Below, one piece after another: positions 19,000 to 37,171 of a stretch of DNA of 39,024 nucleotides. The stretch lies in the NCBI GenBank assembly GCA_032127815.1, contig JAQBHK010000411.1:1-39024 (forward strand), given 5' to 3'. The notes below the pieces were generated by a model. That model had not been told where the DNA came from and did no database searches. It saw nothing but the letters and a program-made list of their open reading frames with translations. The stretch comes from Desulfobacterales bacterium (GTDB lineage Bacteria; Desulfobacterota; Desulfobacteria; Desulfobacterales; UBA11574). Position 1 is the stretch's first letter. Every line of letters begins with the position of its first letter. Position numbers and translations under genes: made by a program.

Positions 19000-19148
19000 A
19001 TGTGTGCTGTAAGGGCAGAGGGGGCATAAATACTGTAACACTGCCAATATCATATTGAATGGCTTTTCAAATGCAGAATTTGTTGATATTTTTAAAAAAA
19101 AGACATAATAAATTCCAGATCAAAAACCAACTAATCCAACAAAGGCTT

Positions 19149-20561: not shown

Positions 20562-20585
20562 CGATTGTCTATTGATGATTGATGG
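20544..20585. repeat. Tandem heptamer array, six units (TTGACGA x3, TTGTCTA, TTGATGA, TTGATGG), spanning the stop codon of the OMP gene
   Basis: Read directly. Stop TGA at 20559-20561 lies inside unit 3. Confidence 0.75.
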
Positions 20586-20608
20586 TTTCGTAATAAGTCA
20601 AAATCTCA

Positions 20609-20684
20609 CGCAAAGCCGCAAAGGGCGCAAAGTTAACTTGTTAATATTAAATGTTGTTTTCTTGGCGTCCTTAGCGTCTTTGCG
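20609..20684. repeat. Imperfect 24-bp inverted repeat (20/24, 28-nt AT-rich loop); arms are tandem 8-mers (C)CGCAAAG
   Basis: Left arm 20609-20632 is cgcaaagccgcaaagggcgcaaag. The reverse complement of right arm 20661-20684 is cgcaaagacgctaaggacgccaag. Confidence 0.75.
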
Positions 20685-20761
20685 AGAAAATATAGTTTTT
20701 ACGAGTTCGCCATGATTGAATATAATTTTTGTTCAAGAACCAGTATCACACAGGTACAAAA

Positions 20762-21988
20762 ATGACGGATAATAAACAGAATAATATGTTTTTCGAAAAA
20801 CAGCCGAGCCCGGTTAAAACGCCGCGCCCCATCGTCAGGATTGTGCTGTCATTGATCATACTCGCTGTTGGTGCCGGTACGGCATTTTACCTGAAAAACA
20901 GTGCGCCCCGAACCCGGAAACAGCCGCTGGCCCGGTTGAGTCCGACGGTTCAGGTCGAACCGGTAACGCTTGCCGACTATCAGATCGTTGTAACGGCCAT
21001 GGGGACCGTTATTCCTGCCCGCGAAGTGGTGCTAAAATCCCGTGTGTCCGGAGAAGTTGTCGAAATTCATCCCGAATTTACGGAAGGCGGGTTATTAAAA
21101 AAAGACACGAAAATACTCCGGATCGACCCGCTGGACTTCAAGCTGGCGCTGGCGCGCAAGCAGAGCGCGGTGACCGCTGCCGAATCCGCCCTGAAACTGG
21201 AGCTGGGCCATCAGGACGTGGCCAAGCGCGAATGGGAACTGTTAAAAGGAGCCGAGCCGGTGCAGGATCTGGAGAAGGAACTGGCGCTGCGCAAACCCCA
21301 TCTGGACAAAGCCAGAGCAGATCTGGCGGCGGCCGAAGCCGACTTTAAGACAGCAGCGCTCAATCTTGACCGAACCCTTATCCTGGCGCCGTTCAATGCC
21401 ATGGTTCGCACAAAAGCGGTGGACCTCGGATCCCAGGTAGCACCACAGGAGCCGCTGGCCGAACTGGTGGGAACCGATGCTTACAGGGTTAGGGTGTCCA
21501 TACCGGTCGATCGCCCTGAATGGATTAACATTCCCGGCCTGGCCGGCGATGCGGGCTCCAAAGCCCGCATTATTTACAGCCAGGGTCATGCATGCAGCGG
21601 GACGGTTGTCCGGCTGTTGGGAGATCTGGCAACCGAAGGGCGCATGGCCCGTATCCTGGTGGAGGTTCCGGACCCGCTCGGTTTGACTGCTTCCAACCAG
21701 GGGCGCGTACCGCTTTTAATCGGCGAGTACGTGCGGGTAGAAATCCAAGGGCGTAAACTAAAGAGCGTGTTTCAAATTCCGCGGCCGGCTTTCAGGGACA
21801 ATTCAAGCGTCTGGATTGCCGGCGAAAACCAGATATTGGAAATTCGGAAGGTGCGTCCGCTCTGGCGTGATGCCGGCTTCGTCCTGCTGCAAGACGGACT
21901 GAAACCCGGTGAACGGCTGATCGTCTCGGATTTGGCGGCACCGGTGCAAGGAATGGCGTTGCTTGTCGGTGGTTCGCCAGGTTCATGA
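20762..21988 (+). CDS. RND efflux membrane fusion (periplasmic adaptor, HlyD family) protein
   Basis: N-terminal TM (IVRIVLSLIILAVGAGTAFYL), a coiled-coil segment (ALKLELGHQDVAKREWELL...DKARADLAAAEADFKTAALNLDRT), and beta-barrel/MP-domain-like regions. ATG 20762 is preferred to TTG 20729. Confidence 0.85.
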   Translation: MTDNKQNNMFFEKQPSPVKTPRPIVRIVLSLIILAVGAGTAFYLKNSAPRTRKQPLARLSPTVQVEPVTLADYQIVVTAMGTVIPAREVVLKSRVSGEVVEIHPEFTEGGLLKKDTKILRIDPLDFKLALARKQSAVTAAESALKLELGHQDVAKREWELLKGAEPVQDLEKELALRKPHLDKARADLAAAEADFKTAALNLDRTLILAPFNAMVRTKAVDLGSQVAPQEPLAELVGTDAYRVRVSIPVDRPEWINIPGLAGDAGSKARIIYSQGHACSGTVVRLLGDLATEGRMARILVEVPDPLGLTASNQGRVPLLIGEYVRVEIQGRKLKSVFQIPRPAFRDNSSVWIAGENQILEIRKVRPLWRDAGFVLLQDGLKPGERLIVSDLAAPVQGMALLVGGSPGS

Positions 21989-22069
21989 AATTTTTTCATC
22001 GACAACTAAAATGTAAATAAATCCAAATACATTGGATGAAAACCACTAAATTGGATATGCGTACGTGAT

Positions 22070-25000
22070 ATGAGCAGTCTTTCGCAAAACGATTCCGAAA
22101 GGAAAGGGGCCATTGTCTGGATGGCCGGGCATTCCGTGACGGCCAACCTGGTCATGCTGGTGCTCCTGTTGGGCGGATTATATATGGGCATCCGGATCAA
22201 AAAGGAGGTTTTTCCTTATTTTGAGCTGGATCTGGTCCAAATCACCGTGCCCTACCCCGGTGCCAGCCCCCAGGAAGTGGAAAGAGGCATCATTTTGGCC
22301 ATAGAAGAAGCCGTCCAGGGGCTGGAAGGGGTCAATGAAGTTCGGGCATCTGCCAGGGAAGGGGTCGGAACGGTTACCGTGGAGATGATCGAAGGCGAAA
22401 ATCTGCAAAAGCTGGCCCAGGATATCCAGAGCGAGGTGGACCGGATTACATCGTTTCCCGACGAAGCCGAAGAGCCGCAAGTGGTGATCGTTTCGCGAAA
22501 ACGTTATGTCGTTTCGCTGGCTCTTTACGGCGACCAGAGCGAGGGGGTTTTGCGTGAATATGCAGAATACCTGCGGGATCGCCTGCTGCAGCAACCGGGC
22601 ATCACCCAGGTGGAGCTGACCGGGGTGCGCAACTATGAGATCAGCGTCGAAATCCCCCAGGACACACTTAGAACCCATAACCTTACGCTTGAGGAAGTTG
22701 CCCAGCGCATCGGCCGGACGTCTATGGAGCTTCCCGGAGGCGCCGTCAAGGCCTTGGGGGGCGATATCCTGGTGCGAGTCAAAGAGCGCAGGGATTACGG
22801 TCATGAATTCGGAAAGATTCCGATTATTACGACCAACGACGGCACCCAGGTTCTGCTTGAAGATATTGCCGATATTAAGGACGGGTTTGAAGAAACCGAC
22901 AATGCCGCTACATATAACGGCAAACCGACCGTGATGATCGAAGTCTTCCGGGTCGGTGATCAAACTCCTGTTTCGGTATCCAATGCCGCTAAACAGGTCG
23001 TCGCTGAAGTCAATCAGGAATTGCCCCCCGGCCTGGCGGTTGTTCTTCGTAACGATCGCTCGGATATTTATCGGCAGCGCATGGGCCTTCTGATCAAAAA
23101 CGGATTTATGGGACTGGGGCTGGTGTTTATTTTGCTGGCATTATTTCTGGAAATCCGGCTCGCATTCTGGGTCGCTCTGGGGATTCCCATCTCTTTTCTG
23201 GGTTCCCTTTTAGTGTTACCGGCCATGGACGTCAGCATTAACATGGTATCCATGTTTGCGTTTATCGTGACTTTAGGTATCGTGGTGGACGATGCCATCG
23301 TGGTCGGGGAAAACGTATATTATCACCGCCAGCGCGGTGTTCCCTGGTTGGAAGCCGCTATCTCAGGGACCCGGGAAATCGCCATGCCGGTTATTTTCAG
23401 CGTACTGACCAACATGGTGGCTTTTTTGCCCTTGTTCTTCGTTCCCGGCATTCTGGGAAAGGTTTTCAGACAAATTCCGGTGGTCGTGATCATCGTGTTC
23501 GCCATTTCGCTGATCGAATGTTTTTTTATTCTTCCGGCCCACGTGGGCCACCAGAAACCGCCGCACAAAGGATTTTTCGGCTGGATATACGCCCGGCAGC
23601 AGCGATTCAGCGACGCCTTTGTCCGTCTGGTTATACATCGATACGGTCCCTTGCTGGGGTTGGCCCTGCGCTGGCGATATGTGACATTGTCCGCGGGCAT
23701 TGCTATTTTAATGATTACGGTCGGCTATGCGAAGAGCGGGCGCATGGGATTCGAGCTTTTTCCAAAGATCGAATCCGATTATGCCCTGGTGACGGCCACG
23801 CTGCCGTTTGGAACCGCTTTTCAAAAAACCGAAAAAGTGCAAAAGATTCTGGTCCGGGCGGCCCAGGAGGTTGTCGCTGAAAACGGCGGAACAACACTCA
23901 TGGAAGGAATTTTTGCCAATATCAATGACAACAAGGCCGAGGTTCGCATCTACCTGACACCGCCGGACAAGCGCCCGATTTCAACGGCCAATCTAACCGA
24001 ACGCTGGCGGGAACGGGTCGGGGTTATTCCGGGATTGGAAGCGCTTTTATTCGAATCCGATGCCGGCGGACCCGGCCGCGGCGCCGCCATTACCATAGAA
24101 CTCAGCCACAAAGATATCGATCTGCTGGAAAAGGCTGCGGCCGGCGTGGCAGAGGCTATGAGATTTTACCCGGAACTCAAAGATATCGATGACGGTTTTG
24201 CGCCGGGCAAACAGCAGATCGATTTCCAGGTCAAGCCTGAAGCCCGCAGTCTCGGATTACGTTCCCGGGAGGTGGCCAGACAGGTCCGGCATGCTTACTA
24301 TGGCGCCGAGGCGTTGCGGCAACAGCGGGGGCGCAATGAAATCAAAGTCATGGTGAGGCTCCCCAAAGACGAACGGGGTTCCGAGTTTAATCTTGAAGAA
24401 ATGATATTGCGGACCCCGGCCGGCAAAGAGATTCCCTTGCGCGCGGCCGTTACCGTAAACCGGGGGCGGGCCTACACCGATATCAATCGCCGCGCCGGGC
24501 GCCGGATCGTGTCGGTGGAAGCCGACGTTCAGCCCCGCAGCAAGGCCGGCCAGGTGCTGGAGTCGCTTAAATCCGAAGCCTTGCCGGCCTTGCAGAAGAA
24601 ATATACCGGTTTGCGCTACAGTTTTGAAGGTCGCCAGGCCGACCAACGCGAAAGCATGCAGAGCCTGATGCGAGGGCTATTGGCGGCGCTGGTGGTTATT
24701 TTTGCCATGCTGGCGGTTCCGTTGAACAGTTATATCCAGCCCATGATCATTATGGCGGCGATTCCCTTCGGCATTGTGGGCGCCGTGCTCGGGCATCTGA
24801 TCATGGGCTACAGCCTGAGCGTGCTCAGCATGTTCGGCGTGGTGGCGCTGTGCGGGGTGGTGGTCAACGATTCACTGGTGTTGATCGATTTTGCCAATCG
24901 TAAAGAAAAGGCCGGAATGAGCCGGCGCGACGCCGTTCACCAGGCCGGCATCCATCGTTTTCGGCCGATTATTTTAACCACTCTGACCACTTTCGGCGGC

Positions 25001-25210
25001 CTGTCGCCGATGATCTTTGAGACCTCCCGCCAGGCCCGGTTTTTGATTCCCATGGCCCTTTCCTTAGGGTACGGCATCCTGTTTGCAACCTTGATTACGT
25101 TGGTTCTGGTGCCGTCTCTTTACCTTATTATCGACGATATTTCTCAATTGATGCGAACCAATCCTGTACCTGATATTCATGATTTAAACTTGGAAAAATC
25201 TGAGAAATAG
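22070..25210 (+). CDS. RND family efflux transporter permease (AcrB/CzcA superfamily, 1046 aa)
   Basis: 12-TM RND layout with two large periplasmic loops. VMLVLLLGGL start, GIVVDDAIVVGENV, VVALCGVVVNDSLVLIDF. Confidence 0.9.
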   Translation: MSSLSQNDSERKGAIVWMAGHSVTANLVMLVLLLGGLYMGIRIKKEVFPYFELDLVQITVPYPGASPQEVERGIILAIEEAVQGLEGVNEVRASAREGVGTVTVEMIEGENLQKLAQDIQSEVDRITSFPDEAEEPQVVIVSRKRYVVSLALYGDQSEGVLREYAEYLRDRLLQQPGITQVELTGVRNYEISVEIPQDTLRTHNLTLEEVAQRIGRTSMELPGGAVKALGGDILVRVKERRDYGHEFGKIPIITTNDGTQVLLEDIADIKDGFEETDNAATYNGKPTVMIEVFRVGDQTPVSVSNAAKQVVAEVNQELPPGLAVVLRNDRSDIYRQRMGLLIKNGFMGLGLVFILLALFLEIRLAFWVALGIPISFLGSLLVLPAMDVSINMVSMFAFIVTLGIVVDDAIVVGENVYYHRQRGVPWLEAAISGTREIAMPVIFSVLTNMVAFLPLFFVPGILGKVFRQIPVVVIIVFAISLIECFFILPAHVGHQKPPHKGFFGWIYARQQRFSDAFVRLVIHRYGPLLGLALRWRYVTLSAGIAILMITVGYAKSGRMGFELFPKIESDYALVTATLPFGTAFQKTEKVQKILVRAAQEVVAENGGTTLMEGIFANINDNKAEVRIYLTPPDKRPISTANLTERWRERVGVIPGLEALLFESDAGGPGRGAAITIELSHKDIDLLEKAAAGVAEAMRFYPELKDIDDGFAPGKQQIDFQVKPEARSLGLRSREVARQVRHAYYGAEALRQQRGRNEIKVMVRLPKDERGSEFNLEEMILRTPAGKEIPLRAAVTVNRGRAYTDINRRAGRRIVSVEADVQPRSKAGQVLESLKSEALPALQKKYTGLRYSFEGRQADQRESMQSLMRGLLAALVVIFAMLAVPLNSYIQPMIIMAAIPFGIVGAVLGHLIMGYSLSVLSMFGVVALCGVVVNDSLVLIDFANRKEKAGMSRRDAVHQAGIHRFRPIILTTLTTFGGLSPMIFETSRQARFLIPMALSLGYGILFATLITLVLVPSLYLIIDDISQLMRTNPVPDIHDLNLEKSEK

Positions 25211-25321
25211 CCATTTTAACCCGAACAAATAATCGCTTGTTGCACGAACGGCCCCTATATCTCTCGACAAGTTCAAAAGAGGGTTCAACCTAGGTTCAAT
25301 AAAGTTCTCGGCAATTAATTC

Positions 25322-25432
25322 CTGGGCGACCAGGAGTGCACGATGTCCCATGTGTGCAGCTTCTCCGCCTGCTTGGACGACCGTACCGGCACCGAAGACA
25401 ATATGGCCTGCCGTGGCAAAGGAAAATTGCAT
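25322..25432 (-). pseudogene. N-terminal stub of an iron-containing alcohol dehydrogenase family gene (about 36 recognisable codons)
   Basis: MQFSFATAGHIVFGAGTVVQAGGEAAHMGHRALLV matches the Fe-ADH/maleylacetate-reductase start pattern (F-f----ivFG-G-------e----G--RaLlV). After that the ORF degenerates and runs into the 3' end of the RND gene. The start lies 4 nt after the reconstructed glpK stop. Confidence 0.5.
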
Positions 25433-25436
25433 GGGT

Positions 25437-26949
25437 TTATTCGATCCAGTTTAAGGTTCGCTCAACGGCCTTTTTCCAACCGGCGATGCCCTGAGCGCGT
25501 TGCCCTGATGCCATCTGTGGCTGCCAGGTCTTGTCCATGGCCCAATTGCTTTTTAGTTCATCCCAACCACTCACAAAACCACTGGCCAGGGGCAGCGGCC
25601 GAGGCGGCACCTAAGGCGGTGGTTTCCGTTATTTTCGGGCGCACGACCGGGACGCCCAAAACGTCGGCCTGAAATTGCATCAGCAGTTCATTGGCCACCA
25701 TGCCGCCATCCACACGCAGACTGCTCAGTGCGACGCCGGAATCTTTCTGCATGGCCTCGACCACATCCAGTGCCTGGTAGGCAACAGCTTCCAAGGCAGC
25801 GCGGGCAATATGGTTGCGGTTAATGAAGCGGGTCAACCCAACGATTACCCCCCGTGCGTCCGAGCGCCAGTAGGGCGCAAACAGACCGGAAAAGGCCGGT
25901 ACGATGTAAGCGCCGCCATTGTCCTCTACATTGCGCGCCAGGGGTTCGATTTCAGCCGCGTGCCGTATGAATCCGAGGTTGTCTCGCAGCCATTGCACCA
26001 GGGCGCCGGCAATAGCGATGGAACCTTCCAGGCAATAGATCGGCTTTTCCCCGCGCATCTGATAGCCGACTGTGGTGAGCATGCCGTGGCGACTGGCCAC
26101 CGCCTCCTCGCCGGTGTTGAGCAGCAAAAAACATCCTGTGCCATACGTGTTCTTTGCTTCTCCAACTTCGAAGCAGGCTTGCCCGACCAATGCGGCCTGC
26201 TGATCTCCCAGCGCCCCGCACACCGGCACTTCACCACCGAGGGGGCCATCCTTGCGGGTGGTGCCCCATGTGTCGGAGTCGATGGAGGGTACGATGCGGG
26301 GTAATATCTGGGCCGGAATATTGAGGGTTTTACAAATCTTTTCATCCCAGGCGAGGGTGTGCAAATCCATCAACAATGTGCGGCTGGCGTTGGTCACGTC
26401 CGTAACATGCGCACCGCCATCCGGGCCGCCGGTGAGCCACCAGATAATCCAGGTCTCGATGGTGCCGAACAGGGCGTCACCCGTTTCAGCACCATAGCTA
26501 GCAGCCTCGACATTTTCTAAAATCCAGCGCACTTTGGGACCGGAAAAATAAGTGGCGACGGGCAGGCCCGTTTTGGCCCGAAAGCGATCCTGGCCTCCCT
26601 CTTTGGTCAAATTGCGGCAGATTTCATCGGTGCGGGTACACTGCCAGACAATGGCGTTCATATACGGCCGGCCGGTGCGTTTGTCCCACATGACCGTGGT
26701 TTCACGCTGGTTGGTGATACCGATGGCCGCGATGTTGTTGCCAATCAAGCCGGTTTTGCCCAACGCCCGGCGGATGACCTCGCCGGTGTTGAGCCAAATC
26801 TCCATAGGATCGTGCTCCACCCAGCCGGCCCGGGGAAAAATTTGCGCATGCTCCTTCTGATACTCCCCGACGATGCGGCCGCGCCGGTCGAAAATGATAA
26901 AACGGTTGCTGGTGGTTCCCAAATCCAATGCACCGATATATTCGCCCAT
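25437..26949 (-). CDS. glpK: Glycerol kinase, with an apparent single-base frameshift about 45 codons before the true stop (tracked ORF is 25558-26949)
   Basis: [53 protein letters not shown]. The expected C-terminus [50 protein letters not shown] lies in another frame and ends at 25437. SD AGGAGA. Confidence 0.9.
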
Positions 26950-26973
26950 AGTTGTCTCCTTTCCTCTGATACG

Positions 26974-27819
26974 TTATCGCGTTAAGCCCGTCTGCCCCAG
27001 CGCCTCGTCCGGCAATCCGAGCGCAACGCCCAACAGCTGCGACACCGATACGGCCGGCAGGTCGCTGTAAGCCGCCGTGCCCGACAGGTGTTCACTGCGG
27101 ACCTGTCCGAACTGAAGCTGGCAGTAAGTACACGCTGTAATCAGCGCCTGGGCGCCCGATTCACTAGCATCGGCCAGTTTTCGCTGCATGAGCGCCAGGG
27201 ACAATTGGTTATTCTTCTCCCATAGCGGATAGCCGCAGCAATCCAGGCGCAGCGGCCACTCAACCACAGTTGCCCCGGTGGCCGCGACAACGGATTCAAA
27301 AATGGTCGGCGCCAGCGGGTTGTCGAATTGGGTCACATCACCGGGTCTGAGGGCATGGCAGCCGTAGTGCGCCGCCGCCCGGTAGCCGTGCAACGGATGT
27401 TTAACTCGGGCCTGCAAATGCGCAAGTCCCAGATCCTCTGCCAAGGCAGTCAGCAAGTGGCGAACGACCACATCCTTGGACCATTGCAGGCCGTCCTCTT
27501 GAAGCAGACCATTGACCCGTTCACGCAGTTCGGCATTGCGATGCATCCAAAAATGGGCATGCTTGAGGTTGCCGTAACAGCATTTGCAGGGGGTGAGCAC
27601 GGGCAAACCCTTGCGGGCGGCCATGGCCAGGATGCGGGCGCCGGAGAGCATGGCTGCCGTGAAATCTACGTGGCGCACCGGGTAGCCGCAGCAGTTCAGC
27701 TCGGTCTCCTCCAACCTGACATCAAGGGCCGACAGCACGGCCCGCGTAGCGCGATCATACTCTGGCAGAAACGGTTTTATTTTGCAACCGGGGAAGTACA
27801 GGTAGCGCAATTTGGCCAT
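26974..27819 (-). CDS. HdrB/GlpC-like protein with two CCG (cysteine-rich) domains
   Basis: MAKLRYLYFPGCKIKPFLPEYDRATRAVL...ELNCCGYP and HYGCHALRPG...RLDCCGYPLW. ATG 27819 is preferred (GGAG 9 nt upstream, 4 nt after the upstream stop) over 27876 or 27834. Confidence 0.75.
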   Translation of the reverse strand: MAKLRYLYFPGCKIKPFLPEYDRATRAVLSALDVRLEETELNCCGYPVRHVDFTAAMLSGARILAMAARKGLPVLTPCKCCYGNLKHAHFWMHRNAELRERVNGLLQEDGLQWSKDVVVRHLLTALAEDLGLAHLQARVKHPLHGYRAAAHYGCHALRPGDVTQFDNPLAPTIFESVVAATGATVVEWPLRLDCCGYPLWEKNNQLSLALMQRKLADASESGAQALITACTYCQLQFGQVRSEHLSGTAAYSDLPAVSVSQLLGVALGLPDEALGQTGLTR

Positions 27820-27823
27820 GCGG

Positions 27824-29566
27824 TTAGGCTCCATTTTTTTGTGCTCCCAAATCGGTTGCCAAGATATGTTGTTCAAAACCGGGGTCCGAGGCCTGTACGG
27901 CAGGGGTCAGGCGCCGGCAGGCCTCGTTGCGCAACTCGTAGAGCACATCGGCCACACGAACCCCTTGGGGACAATGTTCCTGGCACTTGTAGCAAGTCAC
28001 GCAATCCCAGACCATGCGGCTGCCGATGGCCGTCTCTTTGAGCTGCAGGCGCATCAGGTTCATTACCTGCTGGGGGGTCAGCTCCAAATCGCGCTGAGGA
28101 TCTTCCGAGACGGCGACGACAGGACACACATTGGTGCAGGTGGAGCACTGGACACAGGCCCAAAAAGTGTTTGGATTGTCTGTGAGCCGCAAAGGCGTTG
28201 CGCGTAATGGAACCTGCGTGCCCAAAGTATCCGGGCACGTCTTGAGGATCTCCGCCCACTGGGGGGCTGAATGGCGACGCATCCAGCCGTGGGCCTGAGG
28301 ATAGCCGTTGCGACTCAAATCAGATGTTGACGCCGCCCACATATCCTGCAAATCGATGCCGGACGGACACCATGCGGTACATCGACCGCAGTCAGTGCAG
28401 ATAAAGCTGCCCTCGGATAAACGTGCTTGGGCGTGGGCATTGCTGCGACCTGCCGCCATCCGGGCGACGCTGTGCAGCTTTTCAGACGGCAAAATATCAG
28501 AATTGGGGATAACTTGGAAAATCGGGCCCACGGCGCAATGCAGCGTACACACCCCGCAATGGGTGCAGGCGTCCAGCCCCAAAGCACGCCGGGTCGGACG
28601 GTTCACGGGTCGATCGGTGGCAGCGCTGCCCAAGGCGCGGCTCACCAGGCTGAACGGAGTAGACACCAAATGAAACGATTTGCTAAACGGCAGCAGGGCC
28701 AGGGCCAGGCAGCCGATCAGATAGTGGGCGTACCTTAAGGCTGTCTCCAGTCCGATAGCGGTGATCCGCGCAGAAAACGGCTTGAGGGCCAAGGCCAAAG
28801 GATAGGAGAGCACGGCCGAACCCGGTCGCGAATGGCATGCCGCACAATACTCTTCATGCTGGCTGCGGCCTTCGTCCAACAGCTCGGGATCGTTCGCAGA
28901 CGGCATCGGTGCAAATGCCACATCGAATTGGGCTGCCCAGTAGGCCTTCAAGGGGGCGATCTCTTTTGGATCATCGCTGTCCATGTAGTCGACCACCATT
29001 TCATCGAACAGAGTCGGTGAAATGATCTGGACCGCCTCCAGCGCCGCTCCGGTGAGGATGATGCCGGAAAGCAACAACAACAACCAACTATCCGCACCGC
29101 GCATGGTACGACGCAGCGTCCGGTTCGCCCGGCGACGCACCCAAGCAATTATCACACCAACCATGACCAGCACACCCAGCAGATTGCGCAAAAACATGAA
29201 CGGATTGAGGGTTGAGGCGTAATCGGGAAAAAGGCGGGCCGTGATCCGATCGTCGAAGACATGCATCAACAGCAGCAAGAGCATGCCGTAGAACAGGGCT
29301 ATGTGCATGACCCAGCGTCTTGGATCCTGGCGCAGGATGTGGATTTGCAGGAGCACTTCCATAAGCAAGGTTCTTAAAAGGACGATCAGACCCCTTGGTT
29401 GCAACAACGCCTTGGCCACAGCACCGAGGGCGCCCAAAGCGCGCTTTGCCAAAGCGGTATCTTCGGCCTCCGGCCCAAGCGGCAAAACCAGCCAACGCCC
29501 CATGCGATACCCGATGCCGACCAGGCAGATGATCAAGGCACCATATGCACAGTAAGTCAGGAACAT
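27824..29566 (-). CDS. Fusion protein: N-terminal polytopic membrane domain (about 5 TM, His-rich, NarI/HdrE/DsrM-like) plus C-terminal domain with four CxxCxxCxxxC(P) [4Fe-4S] motifs (HdrC-like)
   Basis: Start MFLTYCAYGALIICLVGIGY at 29566 (AAGGGA 8 nt upstream, 13 nt after the glpB stop). TM helices contain His (VMHIALFYGMLLLLLMHVF, YAHYLIG). CAACH sits in the TM4-TM5 loop. FeS motifs: CTHCGVCTLHC, CTDCGRCTAWCP, CVQCSTCTNVCP, CVTCYKCQEHCP. Confidence 0.75.
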   Translation of the reverse strand: MFLTYCAYGALIICLVGIGYRMGRWLVLPLGPEAEDTALAKRALGALGAVAKALLQPRGLIVLLRTLLMEVLLQIHILRQDPRRWVMHIALFYGMLLLLLMHVFDDRITARLFPDYASTLNPFMFLRNLLGVLVMVGVIIAWVRRRANRTLRRTMRGADSWLLLLLSGIILTGAALEAVQIISPTLFDEMVVDYMDSDDPKEIAPLKAYWAAQFDVAFAPMPSANDPELLDEGRSQHEEYCAACHSRPGSAVLSYPLALALKPFSARITAIGLETALRYAHYLIGCLALALLPFSKSFHLVSTPFSLVSRALGSAATDRPVNRPTRRALGLDACTHCGVCTLHCAVGPIFQVIPNSDILPSEKLHSVARMAAGRSNAHAQARLSEGSFICTDCGRCTAWCPSGIDLQDMWAASTSDLSRNGYPQAHGWMRRHSAPQWAEILKTCPDTLGTQVPLRATPLRLTDNPNTFWACVQCSTCTNVCPVVAVSEDPQRDLELTPQQVMNLMRLQLKETAIGSRMVWDCVTCYKCQEHCPQGVRVADVLYELRNEACRRLTPAVQASDPGFEQHILATDLGAQKNGA

Positions 29567-29579
29567 GTTTATTTTCCCT

Positions 29580-30866
29580 TCAGCCCAGCATGCGCACGCA
29601 CGCTCGGACAGCCCCATAGGCTGTGGCAATGGCCAATCCGCTGCCGCATTTCTGGCGTTTCCAATCCTGGTGGGCCAGAATGGAGCCCGCGGCAAAAAGA
29701 TTGGGGTAAAGCATTTGTCCGTTTGCATCCACCGGATGGAATTGGCCGTCCACAGCCACGCCGGCCCGGTTGATCGGATGGCCCTCACGGTGCAGCAAAT
29801 CCTTATGGTGCCAGGCTGCGCGATCCTTGGGCTGTACGACGGGCAAATCGAAAATGGTTTCACGAATACCGTGCCTGTCGGCATGCAATCCTTTGCCGAA
29901 AAAACGCCCGCTGCACATGATGGCGCTGCGTGCCGTGATTCGAAAATCAATGTCGGCCCCCCGCCCCACGTCAAACCGCCAGCGCCCGTCAGCCAGGCGC
30001 TGGGCGCCCATGACACGCTGTTGGAAAAAGGGGCGGATTCCCATAGCCGGTAAGCGTTGCTCAAAGATCTCTCGCAAACGCAAACCGGTGACGGCCGGCA
30101 GCATGGTGGGAATTTCAAAAACAGGTACGCCCAATCCTTGCTGCAAATCTTCCATGACGCGGACGGTGCGGTACATGCCAAGCACGGCCGGCAAGCCGAC
30201 GACCTCGGCCGTGCCGATATGCGGACGAATGGCGGCAACGAGCTTTTCTCGACTATCAGCGACATCCAGCGCCCGCGCCATATGCTCGGTGTACAACTCG
30301 CCTTTGGCATCAGGGAAGCCGATGCGTACCGGAATCAGCTCCGGCCAGCGATCGGCCAGACTCAAGGCGATTTGCCGTGCACTGTAACCTTTCAGGCCGT
30401 CAAAGTCCACCAGCAGGCACGATAAGCGATCCGCCAAAGCCGAAGGCCCGCGACGCATGGTGTGCGGCACGGCATAGGTGGGTTTTAGCGTGCCGGCCGG
30501 GGTTAGAACCTCCATGTTTCTTTGTAAAAGTGTAAAATGCGGGTAACCGCTTGTTAATAAAAAAGCCAAAACAATATCGAAAGACTCGCGGATCGAGGCA
30601 ATATCGACAAGAGCATAGGGATGCAAAGGTTCGTCCCGGCAGAGCCGGGTGATGCCTTGCCAGGGATCGTCCAGCACCTTTCCCTGGGCCACCGGATGCA
30701 CACCGAGCAGATCTATTAAGCCGCTGGCAAATCCGATTTCGCCGATGAGTCCCACCTGCACCGTATCGATGCCTTGTCGGGCGGCAAACAGGGTAGCGGC
30801 CATGCCGGCCATGCCGGTACCGATGATCATCAAATCGCAGGTGGTCTCTTTATTATAGGTGTTCAT
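29580..30866 (-). CDS. glpB: Anaerobic glycerol-3-phosphate dehydrogenase subunit B
   Basis: 428 aa. FAD fold start CDLMIIGTGMAGMAATLFAARQG. Positioned directly after glpA. C-terminal ...GSILAHQDW...GSGLAIATAYGA. Confidence 0.8.
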   Translation of the reverse strand: MNTYNKETTCDLMIIGTGMAGMAATLFAARQGIDTVQVGLIGEIGFASGLIDLLGVHPVAQGKVLDDPWQGITRLCRDEPLHPYALVDIASIRESFDIVLAFLLTSGYPHFTLLQRNMEVLTPAGTLKPTYAVPHTMRRGPSALADRLSCLLVDFDGLKGYSARQIALSLADRWPELIPVRIGFPDAKGELYTEHMARALDVADSREKLVAAIRPHIGTAEVVGLPAVLGMYRTVRVMEDLQQGLGVPVFEIPTMLPAVTGLRLREIFEQRLPAMGIRPFFQQRVMGAQRLADGRWRFDVGRGADIDFRITARSAIMCSGRFFGKGLHADRHGIRETIFDLPVVQPKDRAAWHHKDLLHREGHPINRAGVAVDGQFHPVDANGQMLYPNLFAAGSILAHQDWKRQKCGSGLAIATAYGAVRACVRMLG

Positions 30867-30924
30867 GGCATTACCGACTAATGATGCATGAGCTCAAAGC
30901 AGTGAATCGTATATCGCACAGACT

Positions 30925-31074
30925 GAACATCGAACGTCCAACGTTGAACATCGAATAATGATGTCGCTCCGCTCCGCAATTTAATTTCATTCGTTTTTTT
31001 ATTCACCATTCGATCCGGCGGACAAGTGCTTGCTCGCCTCTGGCGAGTTGGATGTTCGATGTTTGATGTTCATC
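30925..31074. repeat. Inverted-repeat element in the glpA-glpB spacer; arms are tandem heptamers (GAACATC/GAACGTC/CAACGTT/GAACATC versus TTGGATG/TTCGATG/TTTGATG/TTCATC). 18-bp stem (16/18) around a 104-nt spacer
   Basis: 30925-30942 is gaacatcgaacgtccaac. The reverse complement of 31047-31064 is aaacatcgaacatccaac. Inner perfect hairpin ctcgcc-tct-ggcgag at 31033-31047; palindrome CAACGTTG at 30939-30946. Confidence 0.65.
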
Positions 31075-31104
31075 TTTTAAGTAAACCTCTCCCAGCCTTC
31101 AGCC

Positions 31105-32679
31105 TTATTTCCCCTCGGCCTCCAACTCAAGACAGAACAGCCCGCAATGCATGGCCTCCAGCAGTTCGGCCTGGGCCAGCGGCAAATCCCACAGCAGGGG
31201 CTGCTGTCCGCGCCAGCGTTCGCGCAAAAAGGCCCGCAGTTCCGAGGGGCCCCGGCGATTATCCAAATGCTGCCGGTCATACAGGTAGGCAGCCAAACGC
31301 TGGCTGCAAAAAGTTCCCTGACAGGGGCCTTTGCCAATGCGGCTGCGCAGCCCGATCGCCTCAAAGCCAGGCCGGCCATCCAGTTCGCGTATAGTGCCCA
31401 CGATCTCTTCGACCACGCTTTGCGGTACCATTTCACATTCGCAGAGCAACACGTCGTTGGGCGCATTGTCGCGTAGCCACATATTGGGCGCCAGTCCGGG
31501 TTCGGTCCAGCGGGCATCCACTGTGTTGGGCAACGGTTCCAGATGGGTCCGGCAGGACGCATGGACCCCCAGGCGCTCACACACCAGATCGGCTGTTTTC
31601 TCGGCCATCAAGCGATAGGTGGTTAACTTGCCGCTGGTAATGGTGATGAAATTGGCAAGTTTTTCCGGTTCCCGGGCGTGATCGATCAGCGCGAATCCGC
31701 GGCTCACCGTCCGGTCGTCATCCCCTTGCGCCTTTTGGCTGCTGCTGCCCAACAAAGGGCGTACACCGCAGAAGGCACGGATGTATCTAGTGGCCGCCAG
31801 TTCGGGTATCATAGCGGCACCTTCGTCGATAATATGGTCGATTTCATGAATTTCAGGGTAGTACAAGTCAGGTGATTCGGTACGCTCGGAAGTGGTGCCC
31901 AGAATGGAGACGGTCCCTCCGGGCACAAGTATATCTCCGTCAGTGGGGTGACGCAGCCTGTTTACGACCCGTTGGGTGATCCGGGTATTGGTGACTAGCA
32001 TGCTGCCCTTGGAATAAAGCATGTCTATTTGGACTCCGGCCATGGCGGCAACCTCACTGGCCCATGCACCTGAGGCATTAACGATAATTTCAGGTTCGAC
32101 GGACATCTTCTTCCCGGTCATTTTGTTCAGCAGAAGAACAGACCGGATCTTACCATTGATGATCTTGAAATCCACTGCTTGCGTGAAGCGCAGAAAGCGA
32201 GTGCTCAGTTGTTGGGCGTGGGCGATATTGCCAAGGGAGAGTCTGAAAGGATCGATTGTGGCATCTTCAACGTGGAAAGCGGCTATAGTTTGATCCGACA
32301 GGGCGGGCTCCATCTCCTGAGCATCTTTGATATCCAGGAAAAGGGCCGGAATTCCGTGCTGGGCACACCTTTGAGGAAAATCTGCGATATAATTTTCATC
32401 ATCACCGGCTACGGCCACGAACAGGCCGCCCGTATCTTCAATACAATGGGCCGCCAGTTTTTTAAGCAGGCGGCCTTCTCGCTGGCACTCCACGGCTGCA
32501 CTCGGATCGGAGGCAATGTAACGGGCGCCGCTGTGTAAAAGCCCCTGGTTGCCTCCCGAAGCACCGGCGTTAATGTCCTGTTTTTCTGCCAAAACGCAGT
32601 GGATACCGCGCAGGGCCAAATCCCTTGCCAGGCCTGTGCCGGTAGCACCGCCGCCGAGAATCAACACCTGGGTCTTCAC
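31105..32679 (-). CDS. glpA: Anaerobic glycerol-3-phosphate dehydrogenase subunit A (FAD, C-terminal BFD-like [2Fe-2S] domain)
   Basis: VLILGGGATGTGLARDLALRGIHCVLAEK...GASGGNQGLLHSGARY; C-terminal LLCECEMV...GKGPCQGTFC. GTG 32679 is preferred (AAGGAGG 6 nt upstream) over the tracked TTG at 32697. Confidence 0.9.
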   Translation of the reverse strand: MKTQVLILGGGATGTGLARDLALRGIHCVLAEKQDINAGASGGNQGLLHSGARYIASDPSAAVECQREGRLLKKLAAHCIEDTGGLFVAVAGDDENYIADFPQRCAQHGIPALFLDIKDAQEMEPALSDQTIAAFHVEDATIDPFRLSLGNIAHAQQLSTRFLRFTQAVDFKIINGKIRSVLLLNKMTGKKMSVEPEIIVNASGAWASEVAAMAGVQIDMLYSKGSMLVTNTRITQRVVNRLRHPTDGDILVPGGTVSILGTTSERTESPDLYYPEIHEIDHIIDEGAAMIPELAATRYIRAFCGVRPLLGSSSQKAQGDDDRTVSRGFALIDHAREPEKLANFITITSGKLTTYRLMAEKTADLVCERLGVHASCRTHLEPLPNTVDARWTEPGLAPNMWLRDNAPNDVLLCECEMVPQSVVEEIVGTIRELDGRPGFEAIGLRSRIGKGPCQGTFCSQRLAAYLYDRQHLDNRRGPSELRAFLRERWRGQQPLLWDLPLAQAELLEAMHCGLFCLELEAEGK

Positions 32680-32745
32680 GGGGCACCTCCTTGGCAAACG
32701 ATCAACATATCAGGCTTCAAATACTTAAATTTGGCCATTTGTTTA

Positions 32746-32760
32746 TTTCACTTGCGAAAA
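32746..32760. promoter_or_regulatory. Candidate GlpR (DeoR-type) operator, copy 1, in the glpA/glpR divergent region
   Basis: TTTCACTTGCGAAAA recurs 14/15 at 33925-33939. Related CGAAAAA(C)ATCAT units lie at 32755-32767 and 32789-32800. Confidence 0.3.
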
Positions 32761-32931
32761 ACATCATAGGGTGCTAAGGGTTTGTGAACGAAAAAATCAT
32801 GCAAATTAAGTTTGTACGCATTTATTAGCAGAATTGAATTGTTTTGTCACCATAAATATTCCTTTAACAACACATTGTGGCATTAGCTTTCTATTTCGAA
32901 TATTTATGACATATAAGTTTAGGCAGGAAGC

Positions 32932-33786
32932 ATGATGACAGAAAACAGCAAGAGAAGTGAAACATCTTCCGGTACCAACGGCAATTACAGCCCAAGAACA
33001 GACGGATATAATGGAAAGATTGGACCGGTGCGCCAACGGCACGATAAAATCCGACAACTGGTTCAAAATAACGGTTTTGTAACGATCGAATATCTGGCAC
33101 AAGAGTTCGGAGTAACGCCTCAGACGATTCGGCGTGATATAAATATTCTTAGTGAAAACGGGTTGATTAACCGCTACCACGGCGGAGCAGGCATAGCAAC
33201 CAGCACCGAAAACGTCGAATATACAAAACGTAAGGGGCTGTGTTTTAAAGAGAAACAGAAAATTGCACAGATGGTCGCCGAAAATATCCCGGATCACGCC
33301 TCGCTTTTTCTTAATATCGGAACCACAACCGAGGAGGTTGCCAACGCACTGTCCGATCACCAACGCCTCAAGGTGATTACGAACAATCTCAATGTTGCCT
33401 CGATTTTGAGCAGGAACGAAAATTTTGAGGTCATTGTGGCGGGCGGGTTGGTGAGGCCTCGCGATTGTGGGATTATCGGGCCTCTAACGATCGATTTTAT
33501 TCAGCAGTTTCGTGTTGACTACGGCGTTATCGGGATTAGCGGTATTGATCTGGACGGAACATTGCTCGATTTTGATTATCGAGAAGTCATGGTCGCACGC
33601 GCCATTATCGATAATTCCCGTAAAGTGTTTCTGGTCGCCGACCATACCAAATTCGGCCGTAACGCCATGGTGCGGCTTGGCAACATCACGGAGATTGATG
33701 CGCTGTTTACCGATCAGACGCCGCCATCGGTGTTTACCGAGCTTATCAACAGCGCAGATGTTCGATTGTTTTCAGCAAACCCATAA
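32932..33786 (+). CDS. glpR: DeoR-family transcriptional repressor of the glycerol-3-phosphate regulon
   Basis: HTH region RHDKIRQLVQNNGFVTIEYLAQEFGVTPQTIRRDINILSENGLINRYHGGA; C-terminal sugar-phosphate-binding domain (VITNNLNVA...GGLVR...GISGID...VFLVADHTKFG). Divergent from glpAB. Confidence 0.85.
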   Translation: MMTENSKRSETSSGTNGNYSPRTDGYNGKIGPVRQRHDKIRQLVQNNGFVTIEYLAQEFGVTPQTIRRDINILSENGLINRYHGGAGIATSTENVEYTKRKGLCFKEKQKIAQMVAENIPDHASLFLNIGTTTEEVANALSDHQRLKVITNNLNVASILSRNENFEVIVAGGLVRPRDCGIIGPLTIDFIQQFRVDYGVIGISGIDLDGTLLDFDYREVMVARAIIDNSRKVFLVADHTKFGRNAMVRLGNITEIDALFTDQTPPSVFTELINSADVRLFSANP

Positions 33787-34057: not shown

Positions 34058-35152
34058 ATGGGCTTGTCACTACAAAACATTGACAAGATTGTTAACCGAG
34101 AAATCCATCTCAAAGATATCAGCCTTGAATTTGAATCCGGTTCCCGCAATGTGATACTTGGCCGCACACTTTCCGGCAAGACATCCCTGCTGCGTATCAT
34201 GGCCGGCCTGGATCGCCCAACTCACGGCAATATATTTGTAGGCGGTAATGACGTCACCGGCACCCCGGTGCGCAAGCGCAGTGTCGCTATGGTCTATCAG
34301 CAGTTCATTAATTACCCGTCCTTAACCGTTTTTAAAAATATTGCCTCCCCTCTGAAGATAGGCGGACTGAATAAAAAAGAAATAGACCGGCGCGTGCGCG
34401 AAACCGCCGAAATACTGCACCTCGAGAGTCTGTTGAAGCGCTTGCCCTCCGAGCTTTCCGGCGGACAGCAGCAGCGCACCGCCATCGCCCGGGCCCTGGT
34501 AAAAGACGCCGATTTGCTTCTGCTGGACGAGCCTTTGGTGAACCTGGACTATAAACTGCGCGAAGAGCTGCGGGTTGAGCTTCAGGAGATTTTCAAGCAG
34601 CGCAGGGCGATCGTCGTGTACACCACTACGGAACCGACCGAGGCCCTGATGTTGGGAGGCAATATTGTGGTAATCGATGAGGGCCGCGTTCTGCAAACCG
34701 ACGCCACTTCAAAAGTGTACCACAACCCGACGACCCTCAAGGTGGCCGAAATATTCAGCGACCCACCCATTAACTACATTAGCGGCACCGTCCAGGGGAG
34801 CACGGCCCTACTGGGGCATGATATAGAAATTCCATTAGATGGCCATATGAAATCCTTGCCGGCCGGGAACTATAAATTCGGTGTACGCTCCCATCGTTTC
34901 TTTCTATCAAGGACCAGTGAGAAGGATAGCGAAATTCAGGCCAGAGTGGAATTGTCGGAGATAAGCGGGTCGGAAACGTTCATTCATATCAGCTACAACA
35001 ATGCTCGGCTGGTGGTTCAGGAAACCGGGATTCAGCCTCTCAGGATCGGCGCCGAAATATCGATATATGTCAACCCGAGTTGTTTCTTTGTGTACGATGA
35101 GGCCGGCGTTCTGGTGGCAGCACCGTTGCAGGACACTATTAAAAAAGGCTGA
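34058..35152 (+). CDS. ABC transporter ATP-binding protein 1 (MalK/UgpC-like with C-terminal regulatory domain; GlpS/GlpT-type glycerol importer)
   Basis: Walker A GRTLSGKTS (atypical), canonical signature LSGGQQQRTAIARA, Walker B LLLLDEPL, and a TOBE-like tail. Confidence 0.85.
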   Translation: MGLSLQNIDKIVNREIHLKDISLEFESGSRNVILGRTLSGKTSLLRIMAGLDRPTHGNIFVGGNDVTGTPVRKRSVAMVYQQFINYPSLTVFKNIASPLKIGGLNKKEIDRRVRETAEILHLESLLKRLPSELSGGQQQRTAIARALVKDADLLLLDEPLVNLDYKLREELRVELQEIFKQRRAIVVYTTTEPTEALMLGGNIVVIDEGRVLQTDATSKVYHNPTTLKVAEIFSDPPINYISGTVQGSTALLGHDIEIPLDGHMKSLPAGNYKFGVRSHRFFLSRTSEKDSEIQARVELSEISGSETFIHISYNNARLVVQETGIQPLRIGAEISIYVNPSCFFVYDEAGVLVAAPLQDTIKKG

Positions 35153-35166
35153 ACCAGGAGGCGGTC

Positions 35167-36252
35167 ATGGCACAAATCGAGTTAAATGAAATTTCTCACA
35201 GCTATATACGCAACCCAAAAGAAGCGTCGGATTATGCCTTAAAGCGGATTCACAATACTTGGGAGGATGGGGGTGCCTATGCCCTGCTGGGACCTTCAGG
35301 CTGTGGTAAAACCACATTACTGAACGTCATTTCAGGGTTGCTTACCCCCAGTAGCGGCCGGGTGTTTTACAACGGTAAGGACGTCTCCGGATTGCCGCCG
35401 GAAAAACGCAACATTGCCCAGGTCTTTCAGTTTCCTGTTTTGTACGACACCATGACGGTGTTTGGAAATCTGGCCTTCCCTTTGCGAAATCGAGGCGTTC
35501 AGAGTAGCGAAATCACCCAACGGGTACACGAGGTAGCCGAAATCCTTGACTTGACCCCTTTTCTTGAAATGCGAGCGGCCGGGTTGACTGCCGACGCCAA
35601 ACAGAAGGTTTCGTTGGGCCGGGGGTTGGTCCGCAGTGATGTGGCGGCCATTTTGTTTGATGAACCGCTGACCGTGATCGATCCGCAGCTGAAATGGGAC
35701 CTGCGGCGAAAACTCAAAGAGATCCACGAACAGCTTAAGCTGACCTTTATATATGTCACCCACGATCAGGTGGAAGCCTTAACTTTTGCCGACAAAGTAG
35801 TCGTCATGTATGAAGGTGAAATCGTACAAAGCGGTACTCCCCAGGAGCTTTTTGAAAACCCGGAACATACTTTCGTGGGATATTTCATCGGCAGTCCCGG
35901 GATGAACTTTTTGGAGTGTACTTTAGACGGAAATGAGGCGCGAGTTGATGGCGCCGGCATAACATTGGACGAGGAAACGGCGGCAAAGGGACGCAAGGCC
36001 CAGGGAAAACTGGAGGTAGGGATTCGGCCGATGTATCTGGAATTGAGCTCGGAGCCGGTGGAAAGCGGCGTGCCGGCGCAGGTTCAGGCTATTGAAGATC
36101 GGGGCAGTTACATGATTGTGGTGCTTAAAATGGCCGGCAAAACCTTACGGGCCAGACTGCCGGTAGACACGCCGATTTCCGAAGGCAGGGTTTGGCTTGT
36201 TTTCCCGCCGCAAAAGATCAAGCTGTTTGCCGACGGGTGGCTGATTAGCTAG
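35167..36252 (+). CDS. ABC transporter ATP-binding protein 2 (MalK/UgpC-like; degenerate signature motif)
   Basis: Walker A GPSGCGKTTLLN, Q-loop VFQFPV. The signature position reads LTADAKQKVSLGRGL instead of LSGGQ. Walker B ILFDEPL, H-loop VTHD. SD AGGAGG. Confidence 0.85.
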   Translation: MAQIELNEISHSYIRNPKEASDYALKRIHNTWEDGGAYALLGPSGCGKTTLLNVISGLLTPSSGRVFYNGKDVSGLPPEKRNIAQVFQFPVLYDTMTVFGNLAFPLRNRGVQSSEITQRVHEVAEILDLTPFLEMRAAGLTADAKQKVSLGRGLVRSDVAAILFDEPLTVIDPQLKWDLRRKLKEIHEQLKLTFIYVTHDQVEALTFADKVVVMYEGEIVQSGTPQELFENPEHTFVGYFIGSPGMNFLECTLDGNEARVDGAGITLDEETAAKGRKAQGKLEVGIRPMYLELSSEPVESGVPAQVQAIEDRGSYMIVVLKMAGKTLRARLPVDTPISEGRVWLVFPPQKIKLFADGWLIS

Positions 36253-36283
36253 TGTCCATTTTGGATTCGCAAATGGACACTAG
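36249..36283 (+). promoter_or_regulatory. Perfect 13-bp stem / 9-nt loop intercistronic hairpin overlapping the ATPase-2 stop codon
   Basis: CTAGTGTCCATTT-tggattcgc-AAATGGACACTAG. Stop TAG at 36250-36252. The permease ATG lies 18 nt after the hairpin. Confidence 0.6.
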
Positions 36284-36301
36284 TTAGCAAGGAGTTTTTC
36301 T

Positions 36302-37171
36302 ATGGAAAAGTGGGAAGACAATAAGGCCTGGTTTCTGGTTCTACCGGTTTTTATCATCGTTGCCTTCAGCGCCATCATTCCTCTGATGACCGTGGTCAAT
36401 TATTCGCTCCAGGACATCTGGGGGCCGGGCCAGAGCGTCTTCGTCGGCACCGAGTGGTTCAAGGAAATGTTGGCCGACAAGCGCCTGCACGACGCCCTAT
36501 GGCGTCAATTCCTGTTCTCCGGGCTCGTGCTGTTGATCGAGATGCCGCTTGGCATACTTATTGCCCTGGCAATGCCCAAACGTGGTTGGGCAGCTTCCGC
36601 CTGTCTGGTTACAATTGCGATACCTCTGCTCGTTCCCTGGAATACGATCGGGACCATTTGGATCATCTTTACACGACCGGATATCGGTTTATTCGGGGCC
36701 GCCGTCAACAAATTCGTAGCATTCGATCATACCGCCCGGCCACTGGATGCCTGGATAACCCTGATGCTGATGGAAGTCTGGCATTGGACCCCGCTGGTTG
36801 CCCTGCTGGCCTATGCAGGGCTGCGCGCGATTCCCGAGGCTTACTACCAGGCGGCCAAGATCGACGGCGCATCGGCCTGGTCGATATTCTGGTACATCCA
36901 GCTGCCGAAGATGCGCGGCGTGCTCACCATCGCCTTTTTACTGCGCTTCATGGACAGTTTCCTGATCTACGCTGAGCCCTTTGTGCTGACAGGCGGCGGT
37001 CCCGGTAATTCGACCACATTCCTCTCCATTTATCTGGTCAAGATCGCCCTTTTGCAATTCGACTTAGGACCTGGCGGGGCCTTCTCGCTGATCTACTTTG
37101 TCATCGTACTGCTATTCAGTTTCATATTTTACCAGGCGCTTCAGAGAGTCGGAAAAGGAGAGCAGGTATGA
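36302..37171 (+). CDS. ABC transporter permease 1 (MalF/UgpA-type, 6 TM)
   Basis: Binding-protein-dependent transport inner-membrane signature region AAKIDGASAWSIFWYIQLPKMRG (EAA loop). SD AAGGAG. Confidence 0.85.
   Translation: MEKWEDNKAWFLVLPVFIIVAFSAIIPLMTVVNYSLQDIWGPGQSVFVGTEWFKEMLADKRLHDALWRQFLFSGLVLLIEMPLGILIALAMPKRGWAASACLVTIAIPLLVPWNTIGTIWIIFTRPDIGLFGAAVNKFVAFDHTARPLDAWITLMLMEVWHWTPLVALLAYAGLRAIPEAYYQAAKIDGASAWSIFWYIQLPKMRGVLTIAFLLRFMDSFLIYAEPFVLTGGGPGNSTTFLSIYLVKIALLQFDLGPGGAFSLIYFVIVLLFSFIFYQALQRVGKGEQV

Follow-up and report, generated by a model that had tools for sequence, protein, structure and literature searches.

By what route do electrons taken from glycerol-3-phosphate (G3P) leave the GlpAB dehydrogenase in a genome where no canonical GlpC is detected? 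The question is raised by a locus of a Desulfobacterales bacterium (assembly GCA_032127815.1, contig JAQBHK010000411.1, positions 1 to 39,024; this whole stretch of 39,024 nucleotides is hereafter the window), in which five co-oriented genes on the minus strand follow one another in the order glpA, glpB, a gene for a 580-residue protein with a membrane half and an iron-sulfur half, a gene for a 281-residue HdrB-like protein, and glpK. An initial annotation of the window proposed that the 580- and 281-residue proteins provide a membrane-integral exit for G3P electrons to menaquinone. The exit stands as the best reading, because a NarI-type fold, an HdrC-like part and an HdrB homologue are combined in a pair of genes that follows glpAB in 70 of 80 related loci, and because no GlpC above cut-off was found in the genome; the presence in the same locus of glpK, a glpR-like regulator gene and an ATP-binding cassette (ABC) transporter favours it further. 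Menaquinone as the acceptor is the inferred part of the proposal, and is favoured because the closest characterised relatives, EMO and EtfD, send flavoprotein electrons to (methyl)menaquinone. On balance we lean towards the view that the two proteins take over from GlpC, anchoring the dehydrogenase in the membrane and letting its electrons out, and that with GlpAB they constitute a G3P:menaquinone oxidoreductase.

The dehydrogenase itself is readily identified. GlpA (31108-32697, minus strand; 530 residues; Pfam DAO) scores 472.6 bits on NF008313 (cut-off 425) and 549.3 bits on TIGR03377, just under its cut-off of 552.8, and GlpB (29583-30866, minus strand; 428 residues; FAD_binding_2) scores 539.2 bits on NF003725 (cut-off 345). 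These scores are at orthologue level, and nothing else in the genome matches GlpA strongly. No canonical GlpC exceeds the cut-off in this assembly (569 contigs, 93% complete), the best match reaching 109.8 bits against 279.9, in agreement with the earlier suggestion that a split module stands in place of GlpC; on the GlpC profiles (TIGR03379/NF008369, cut-offs 278-280) the 580-residue protein itself scores 62.3/47.8 bits and the 281-residue protein 29.6. Both members of the pair follow glpA-glpB in the same orientation and at short distances, as had been noted. The start of the 580-residue open reading frame (ORF) (27827-29566, minus strand) lies 13 nt from the glpB stop and has an AAGGGA ribosome-binding site in front of it, and the 281-residue ORF (26977-27819, minus strand) starts 4 nt from the stop of its neighbour, with GGAG 9 nt upstream of the start. 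A longer, 828-residue reading of the 580-residue frame was rejected, as it overlaps glpB and is extended merely for want of an upstream stop. A promoter and terminator scan of positions 25000-33200 found nothing above shuffled expectation, a result that says nothing about operon structure.

The 580-residue protein joins a NarI-like cytochrome b to two 2x[4Fe-4S] domains and can be described as an HdrF-type fusion of HdrE-like and HdrC-like parts. Its membrane domain (residues 1-305; 28652-29566, minus strand) has five transmembrane (TM) helices, placed by hydropathy at residues 1-25, 82-105, 120-147, 157-185 and ~273-301, and by an AlphaFold2 (AF2) model built on 22 sequences at residues 2-27, 82-102, 121-147, 157-181 and 273-294, with pLDDT of 80-95 in the membrane part. 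The initial annotation had described about five such helices with conserved-looking histidines, and the histidines are indeed conserved: His88 and His102 on TM2 and His281 and His299 on TM5 are all invariant in 121 homologues, and are predicted to be the ligands of a proximal (His88/His299) and a distal (His102/His281) haem b. Arginine and lysine are abundant in the two loops that follow TM1 and TM3, as well as in the segment behind TM5, and the TM4-TM5 loop (residues ~184-270) is strongly acidic; by the positive-inside rule, this charge distribution places the N-terminus and the long TM4-TM5 loop outside and the iron-sulfur half inside.

Similarity of the membrane half to the NarI/HdrE type, suggested from the start, is seen both in profile matches and in predicted structure. 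Pfam PF02665 (Nitrate_red_gam) matches residues 124-182 at 28.9 bits, above the cut-off of 22.9, and the AF2 model aligns to E. coli NarI chains with VIA Z of 9.6-10.1 (rmsd 4.3-5.1, 172-184 of 211-225 residues, 21-23% identity; Foldseek probability 0.35-0.97). A Z of about 10 is modest on its own for helical bundles and counts jointly with the profile match and the histidine pattern; together they support a NarI/HdrE-type cytochrome b fold. The protein is not the NarI of nitrate reductase itself, since its score on TIGR00351 (narI) is only 21.5 bits, far under the cut-off of 105.6. A six-frame search of the genome with PF02665 (E <= 0.001) did not list the window copy, which reflects the sensitivity limit of six-frame searching, as the protein itself passes the cut-off. 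Five helices in the NarI fold, with bis-histidine sites on TM2 and TM5 for two b haems, are shared with NarI, HdrE, DsrM, HmcE, TmcC and QmoC. The two TM2 histidines are 14 residues apart in the 580-residue protein and 10 in E. coli NarI, and NarI and DsrM differ further in being separate subunits. QmoC is, like the 580-residue protein, a fusion of HdrC and NarI parts (48 bits on the HdrC part), but with the iron-sulfur domain at its N-terminus.

The C-terminal half carries the four complete CxxCxxCxxxC motifs reported for it, starting at residues 334, 390, 471 and 522, with proline next in three of them and alanine after the first; all 16 motif cysteines are invariant or nearly so among the 121 homologues. 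The four motifs make two helical-ferredoxin domains. The first dicluster domain (residues ~330-410, motifs 334 and 390; 28337-28579, minus strand) belongs to Fer4_8, with weak matches to the N-terminal domains of GlcF and HmcF and the C-terminal domain of SdhB. The second (residues ~465-552, motifs 471 and 522; 27911-28174, minus strand) is HdrC-like, matching HdrC with an E value of 1.3e-13 in a PDB profile search and with VIA Z 8.1 over residues 459-555, and its best NCBIfam stretches are the GlpC N-terminus, HdrC and QmoC, all far under cut-off. For the 580-residue AF2 model as a whole, the best structural match is M. smegmatis EtfD (9OJN; Foldseek E 5e-5, VIA Z 22.1 over 333 residues). A fragmented assembly, and a frameshift in the neighbouring glpK, could raise the suspicion that a cytochrome b gene and a ferredoxin gene have here been fused by an assembly or frameshift error. 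Yet a single ORF with TM helices, a CxxCH motif and the iron-sulfur motifs recurs in 80 independent species loci, 120 database clusters and 14 paralogue loci, and since every species locus has both halves in one ORF (~520-600 residues in 80 of 80, complete genomes included), an assembly-error fusion is excluded and we give such an artefact practically no weight.

Synteny was scanned in one genome per species, for a total of 80 loci, and both genes proved to be regular members of glpAB loci in relatives. glpB lies directly upstream of the 580-residue homologue in 70 loci (the other ten comprise 6 contig-end cuts and 4 with unrelated neighbours), the gene with CCG motifs lies directly downstream in 76 (3 of the 4 misses are contig ends), and glpA, glpR and usually glpK round off the cluster. 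The four iron-sulfur motifs are present at every species locus except in one gene cut by a contig end, at identities down to 34%, and in none of the 80 does the 580-residue homologue carry a fused CCG domain, a lone CCG tripeptide in the membrane part of one of them (L031) being a chance occurrence. The loci are distributed among Desulfobacterales, Desulfovibrionaceae, Desulfomicrobium and Syntrophobacteraceae; they come from, among others, Desulfatitalea, Desulfosarcinaceae, Desulfobacula, Desulfosudis, Syntrophobacteraceae, Desulfomicrobium and Halodesulfovibrio, with Desulfovibrio caledoniensis, Pseudodesulfovibrio karagichevae and Salidesulfovibrio brasiliensis among those in culture, and the nearest locus, at 95% identity, is that of 'Candidatus Desulfatibia vada'. 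Within the same order, 168 of 401 sampled genomes match at E <= 1e-30, a count that includes a paralogous subfamily. At four loci (L020, L021, L024 and L042) the gene for the TM/iron-sulfur protein, accompanied in three by the CCG gene, is found amid unrelated genes with no dehydrogenase partner in an operon-like position; the genes upstream encode TatC and YcaO (L020), PriA (L021), RsgA (L024, which has a gene for a chaperonin on the downstream side) and, on the opposite strand, a beta-keto acid cleavage enzyme and an acyl-CoA dehydrogenase (L042).

One claim of the initial annotation did not survive, namely that the domain order is unrecognised among Hdr-like families: the same order is found in HdrF and in EMO/EtfD. 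HdrF was defined in Desulfobacterium (Desulforapulum) autotrophicum HRM2, with the order membrane, HdrC-like, HdrB-like, and the HRM2 genome has two hdrF loci beside glpAB, one HdrF being split over two genes (Strittmatter et al. 2009, PMC2702500). The proximity of hdrF and glpAB was taken there to support HdrF as the electron outlet of GlpAB (PMC2702500). The resemblance to the module of the window is close, in that HdrF is membrane-integral, runs from TM to HdrC-like to HdrB-like parts, is encoded next to glpAB and has one split copy; it differs in being known from annotation only. In the available passages of the text of PMC2702500 there is no mention of a second dicluster domain, a four-histidine pattern or a CxxCH loop. 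The HRM2 protein WP_049770398.1, a 539-residue family member without a CCG domain, shares 45% identity with a glp-linked member of the Desulfobacula type and 37% with the 580-residue protein, and would, going by the description in that paper, be the split HdrF of HRM2. An order-wide search with it gave a best identity of 46% in a sample that does not include HRM2. The 2024 description of Pseudodesulfovibrio methanolicus reports a cluster of glpK, a set of Hdr-like genes, glpBA, glpR and glpSTPQUV that is common to other sulfate-reducing bacteria. The combination of GlpAB with a split membrane module has thus been described before, occurs commonly in this group and is largely ordinary. As a separate observation, two homologues from other genomes (G356:C61:31360-32820 and G328:C1:3159585-3160640, the latter L096) have a single in-frame stop, TGA in one and TAG in the other; HdrF2 of HRM2 is reported as a selenoprotein (PMC2702500), and by analogy the TGA may encode selenocysteine.

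The module also occurs with other partners. A second copy in the same genome (contig C182; L084:453-6357, minus strand) consists of a 605-residue protein with TM helices, CxxCH and four iron-sulfur motifs, a 296-residue CCG protein and a 925-residue HdrA-like flavo-iron-sulfur protein with Pyr_redox_2 and several Fer4 domains. A third (contig C272; L085:7892-8605) is cut by the contig end; its neighbours, encoded on the other strand, are two PAS histidine kinases. A further 14 Desulfobacterales genomes were sampled among the lower-scoring matches: in 13 of them a CCG gene comes directly after the paralogue, and in 10 the fetched flank holds a homologue of the 925-residue protein that is complete or almost complete in length. 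The membrane/CCG module is not specific to GlpAB, and a limited literature search found no description of its reuse beside the HdrA-like flavoprotein.

E. coli GlpC is the counterpart by genomic place, after glpAB, by its presumed role between GlpAB and menaquinone, and by its HdrC-like dicluster domain with two CCG domains; it is, however, a single protein of ~400 residues (the NF008369 profile has length 401) where the window encodes two. GlpC has no TM helices and no haem. The closest characterised relative is the ETF:(methyl)menaquinone oxidoreductase (EMO/EtfD; ETF, electron transfer flavoprotein), whose structures are available from S. aciditrophicus in an electron cryomicroscopy preprint (10.64898/2026.08.18.745454) and from M. 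smegmatis (PDB 9OJN; MsEMO). EMO is a single chain in which ETF electrons pass through HdrB-like non-cubane clusters and two cubane clusters to haem b and (methyl)menaquinone (10.64898/2026.08.18.745454; PDB 9OJN). It has in common with the pair studied here an N-terminal NarI-type five-helix haem-b domain followed by an alpha-helical 2x[4Fe-4S] domain and then HdrB-like non-cubane clusters, a likely common source of electrons in a cytoplasmic flavoprotein (passed in EMO to menaquinone), and a TM5 histidine pair 18 residues apart (H233/H251 in EMO), a spacing that also matches NarI. The differences are several: EMO is one polypeptide, whereas the window has a separate gene for the HdrB part; it has one dicluster domain and the 580-residue protein two; it has three histidines, serving a twin distal haem, with no distal haem in MsEMO, compared with four in a NarI-like pattern here; no CxxCH loop has been reported for it; and its donor is ETF, while the neighbours here are glpAB, not etfAB. 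In a limited literature search we did not find the split-off HdrB, the second dicluster domain, the four-histidine pattern, the ten HdrB cysteines or the CxxCH loop discussed as differences.

The 281-residue protein has the two CCG motifs first read in it, NCCGYP and DCCGYP, within two PF02754 domains (84.7 bits), each a predicted non-cubane cluster domain. Its residues 6-274 align to HdrB of M. marburgensis (E 7.7e-47), and each of the ten cysteines of both non-cubane clusters is matched, whereas EMO and EtfD have each lost one cluster cysteine. Such a match, end to end with a catalytic methanogen HdrB, could mean that the protein is itself a catalyst, in which case the complex would reduce a disulfide or trisulfide carrier (for example DsrC, as in DsrMK and HdrDE) with G3P electrons, and the membrane part would exchange electrons with the pool of menaquinol as an additional donor or as an overflow. 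The pairing of the module with an HdrA-like flavoprotein, in its own genome and in the 10 of 14 sampled genomes, is consistent with this idea, and channelling of GlpAB electrons to Hdr subunits was itself raised as an alternative to the quinone pool in the paper that defined HdrF (PMC2702500). We nevertheless regard it as distinctly improbable. The score on TIGR03288, the HdrB equivalog, is 171 bits against a cut-off of 345, so that the protein is an HdrB homologue and not a CoB-CoM reductase subunit; its score of 156.9 bits on SdhE, the CCG protein of quinol:fumarate reductase with a role in quinone and electron transfer only, is nearly equal; the locus contains no dsrC or thiol-carrier gene; and CCG domains serve electron transfer in E. 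coli GlpC and EMO. With HdrB at 171 bits, SdhE at 157 and GlpC at 30, this is a protein of HdrB/SdhE type and not one half of a GlpC.

Returning to the GlpC-replacing exit to menaquinone, we infer a complex of the pair with GlpAB, occupied cofactor sites and a flow of electrons from cytoplasm to membrane acceptor along the following path. G3P would be oxidised in the cytoplasm by GlpA/GlpB, and its electrons would enter at the two non-cubane clusters of the 281-residue HdrB-like protein, as in the structure of EMO with ETF, where flavoprotein electrons come in at such clusters (10.64898/2026.08.18.745454). From there they would run along four cubane [4Fe-4S] clusters of the 580-residue protein, those of the HdrC-like domain and then those of the extra dicluster domain, to the predicted proximal haem b and on to the distal haem b within the NarI-type five-helix bundle. 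Menaquinone would be reduced near the periplasmic face, where the distal site may be formed in part by a putative haem c.

Several considerations weigh against this path. The family is biochemically uncharacterised. The transfer of electrons from G3P to menaquinone is already exergonic by textbook potentials (about -190 versus -74 mV), and a two-haem path to a quinone on the periplasmic side would therefore spend proton-motive force without obvious need. The uncoupled MsEMO has a single haem b (10.64898/2026.08.18.745454). NarI and EMO reduce quinone with no need of a periplasmic haem c. The HdrB-like protein retains all catalytic-cluster cysteines, so a thiol or disulfide substrate is conceivable, and the occurrence of the module without GlpAB in four loci and beside the HdrA-like flavoprotein in 10 of 14 genomes means that its acceptor is not bound to glycerol metabolism. 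Because a path that consumes proton-motive force seems unnecessary for an exergonic reaction, both a catalytic HdrB site and export of electrons through a haem c stay alive as rivals.

The latter concerns the loop between TM4 and TM5, which is acidic, predicted to be periplasmic, and contains a CxxCH motif (C241-A-A-C244-H245; 28832-28846, minus strand), a candidate site for covalent haem c. The motif is invariant in 121 of 121 database homologues, 80 of 80 species loci and 14 of 14 paralogue loci (215 sequences from both subfamilies); His237, four residues ahead of it, is near-invariant and Met190 is invariant, and the genome has a cytochrome-c assembly gene (PF01578, 141 bits). A haem c is probably held by this CxxCH, next to the distal haem b, and could contribute to the quinone site, in a position comparable to that of the second distal haem in the twin-haem of EMO. 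We know of no counterpart to a periplasmic TM4-TM5 loop of ~85 residues with CxxCH, no exhaustive search having been made, and in a literature search no NarI-type protein with a haem-c loop was apparent from titles, which is not proof of absence. Another NarI-family ORF of the same genome, located on contig C142 next to an iron-sulfur-protein ORF and probably dsrM, is without CxxCH.

If a haem c is present, electrons might bypass the quinone altogether: the membrane potential would drive G3P electrons across both b haems to the loop haem c and then to the periplasmic c3 pool, which would supply hydrogenases or formate dehydrogenases, Qrc, or other membrane complexes, menaquinone not being the direct acceptor. 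This would do away with the puzzle, on thermodynamic grounds, of an exergonic reaction that runs a reverse redox loop, and would agree with the retention of all four b-haem histidines, implying true transmembrane transfer, where the uncoupled MsEMO lost the distal haem. It also draws on the invariance of CxxCH in a loop placed in the periplasm by the positive-inside rule, on the cytochrome-c maturation gene, and on His237 and Met190, either of which could be the sixth ligand. On the other hand, the haem c is a prediction, one haem in so short a loop may lack surface exposure, the operon has no conserved gene for a periplasmic cytochrome, and all of the closest characterised relatives use quinones; we therefore think such export unlikely, though more likely than a catalytic role for the HdrB-like protein.

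We hypothesize that the 580-residue protein is a tri-haem NarI-type subunit (proximal b, distal b, loop c) and that, with its HdrB-like partner, it forms a reusable transmembrane module of Desulfobacterota serving at least two flavoenzymes, GlpAB and the 925-residue HdrA-like protein, and linked either to a quinone site at the distal b/c haem pair or directly to periplasmic cytochromes. This extended hypothesis is tentative, and we rate it slightly below an even chance. To our knowledge, no described relative among NarI, HdrE, DsrM and EMO has such a set of haems (b, b, c).

Divergent from glpA is a glpR-like gene for a DeoR-family regulator (32932-33783, plus strand; HTH_DeoR, DeoRC); most related loci likewise have a glpR-like gene on the upstream side of glpA, as a rule in divergent orientation. 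Beyond it are genes for an ABC transporter with two ATPases and two permeases (34058-37971, plus strand; ABC_tran x2, BPD_transp_1 x2), which is probably a glycerol/G3P uptake system of the same regulon as the glp genes. On the other side, the glycerol kinase gene glpK (25437-26949 with a frameshift, the main-frame part being 25561-26949, minus strand; FGGY_N, FGGY_C) is interrupted after approximately residue 444, its last ~50 codons (ending NWIE) lying in another frame at 25440-25586; the frameshift was detected with tblastn of a 503-residue relative, the match of which splits into two frames. glpK is intact (503 residues) in relatives, including the 95%-identical locus L043, and the frameshift reflects either an erroneous indel in the draft assembly or the recent decay of glpK into a pseudogene. 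Adjoining glpK and convergent with it is a resistance-nodulation-division (RND) efflux system (19059-25210, plus strand) comprising an outer-membrane factor, a HlyD-type adaptor and a 1046-residue AcrB-type pump.

How cytoplasmic dehydrogenases for lactate, G3P and acyl-CoA feed electrons into the membrane of sulfate-reducing bacteria, and at what energetic cost or gain, is only partly understood. In many Desulfobacterales and Desulfovibrionaceae the family described here is the standard GlpAB outlet. Some of its hosts are in culture, and it is closely related to, yet distinct from, EMO/EtfD, for which structures were published only recently. For annotation, its members would be better named GlpC-replacing HdrF-type subunits than '4Fe-4S dicluster domain-containing protein'. 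The parts most worth attention are the CxxCH loop and the modular reuse. Characterisation would show whether an exergonic donor also takes a two-haem transmembrane path, what role the invariant periplasmic CxxCH plays, and whether a fully cysteine-ligated HdrB can be a mere wire.

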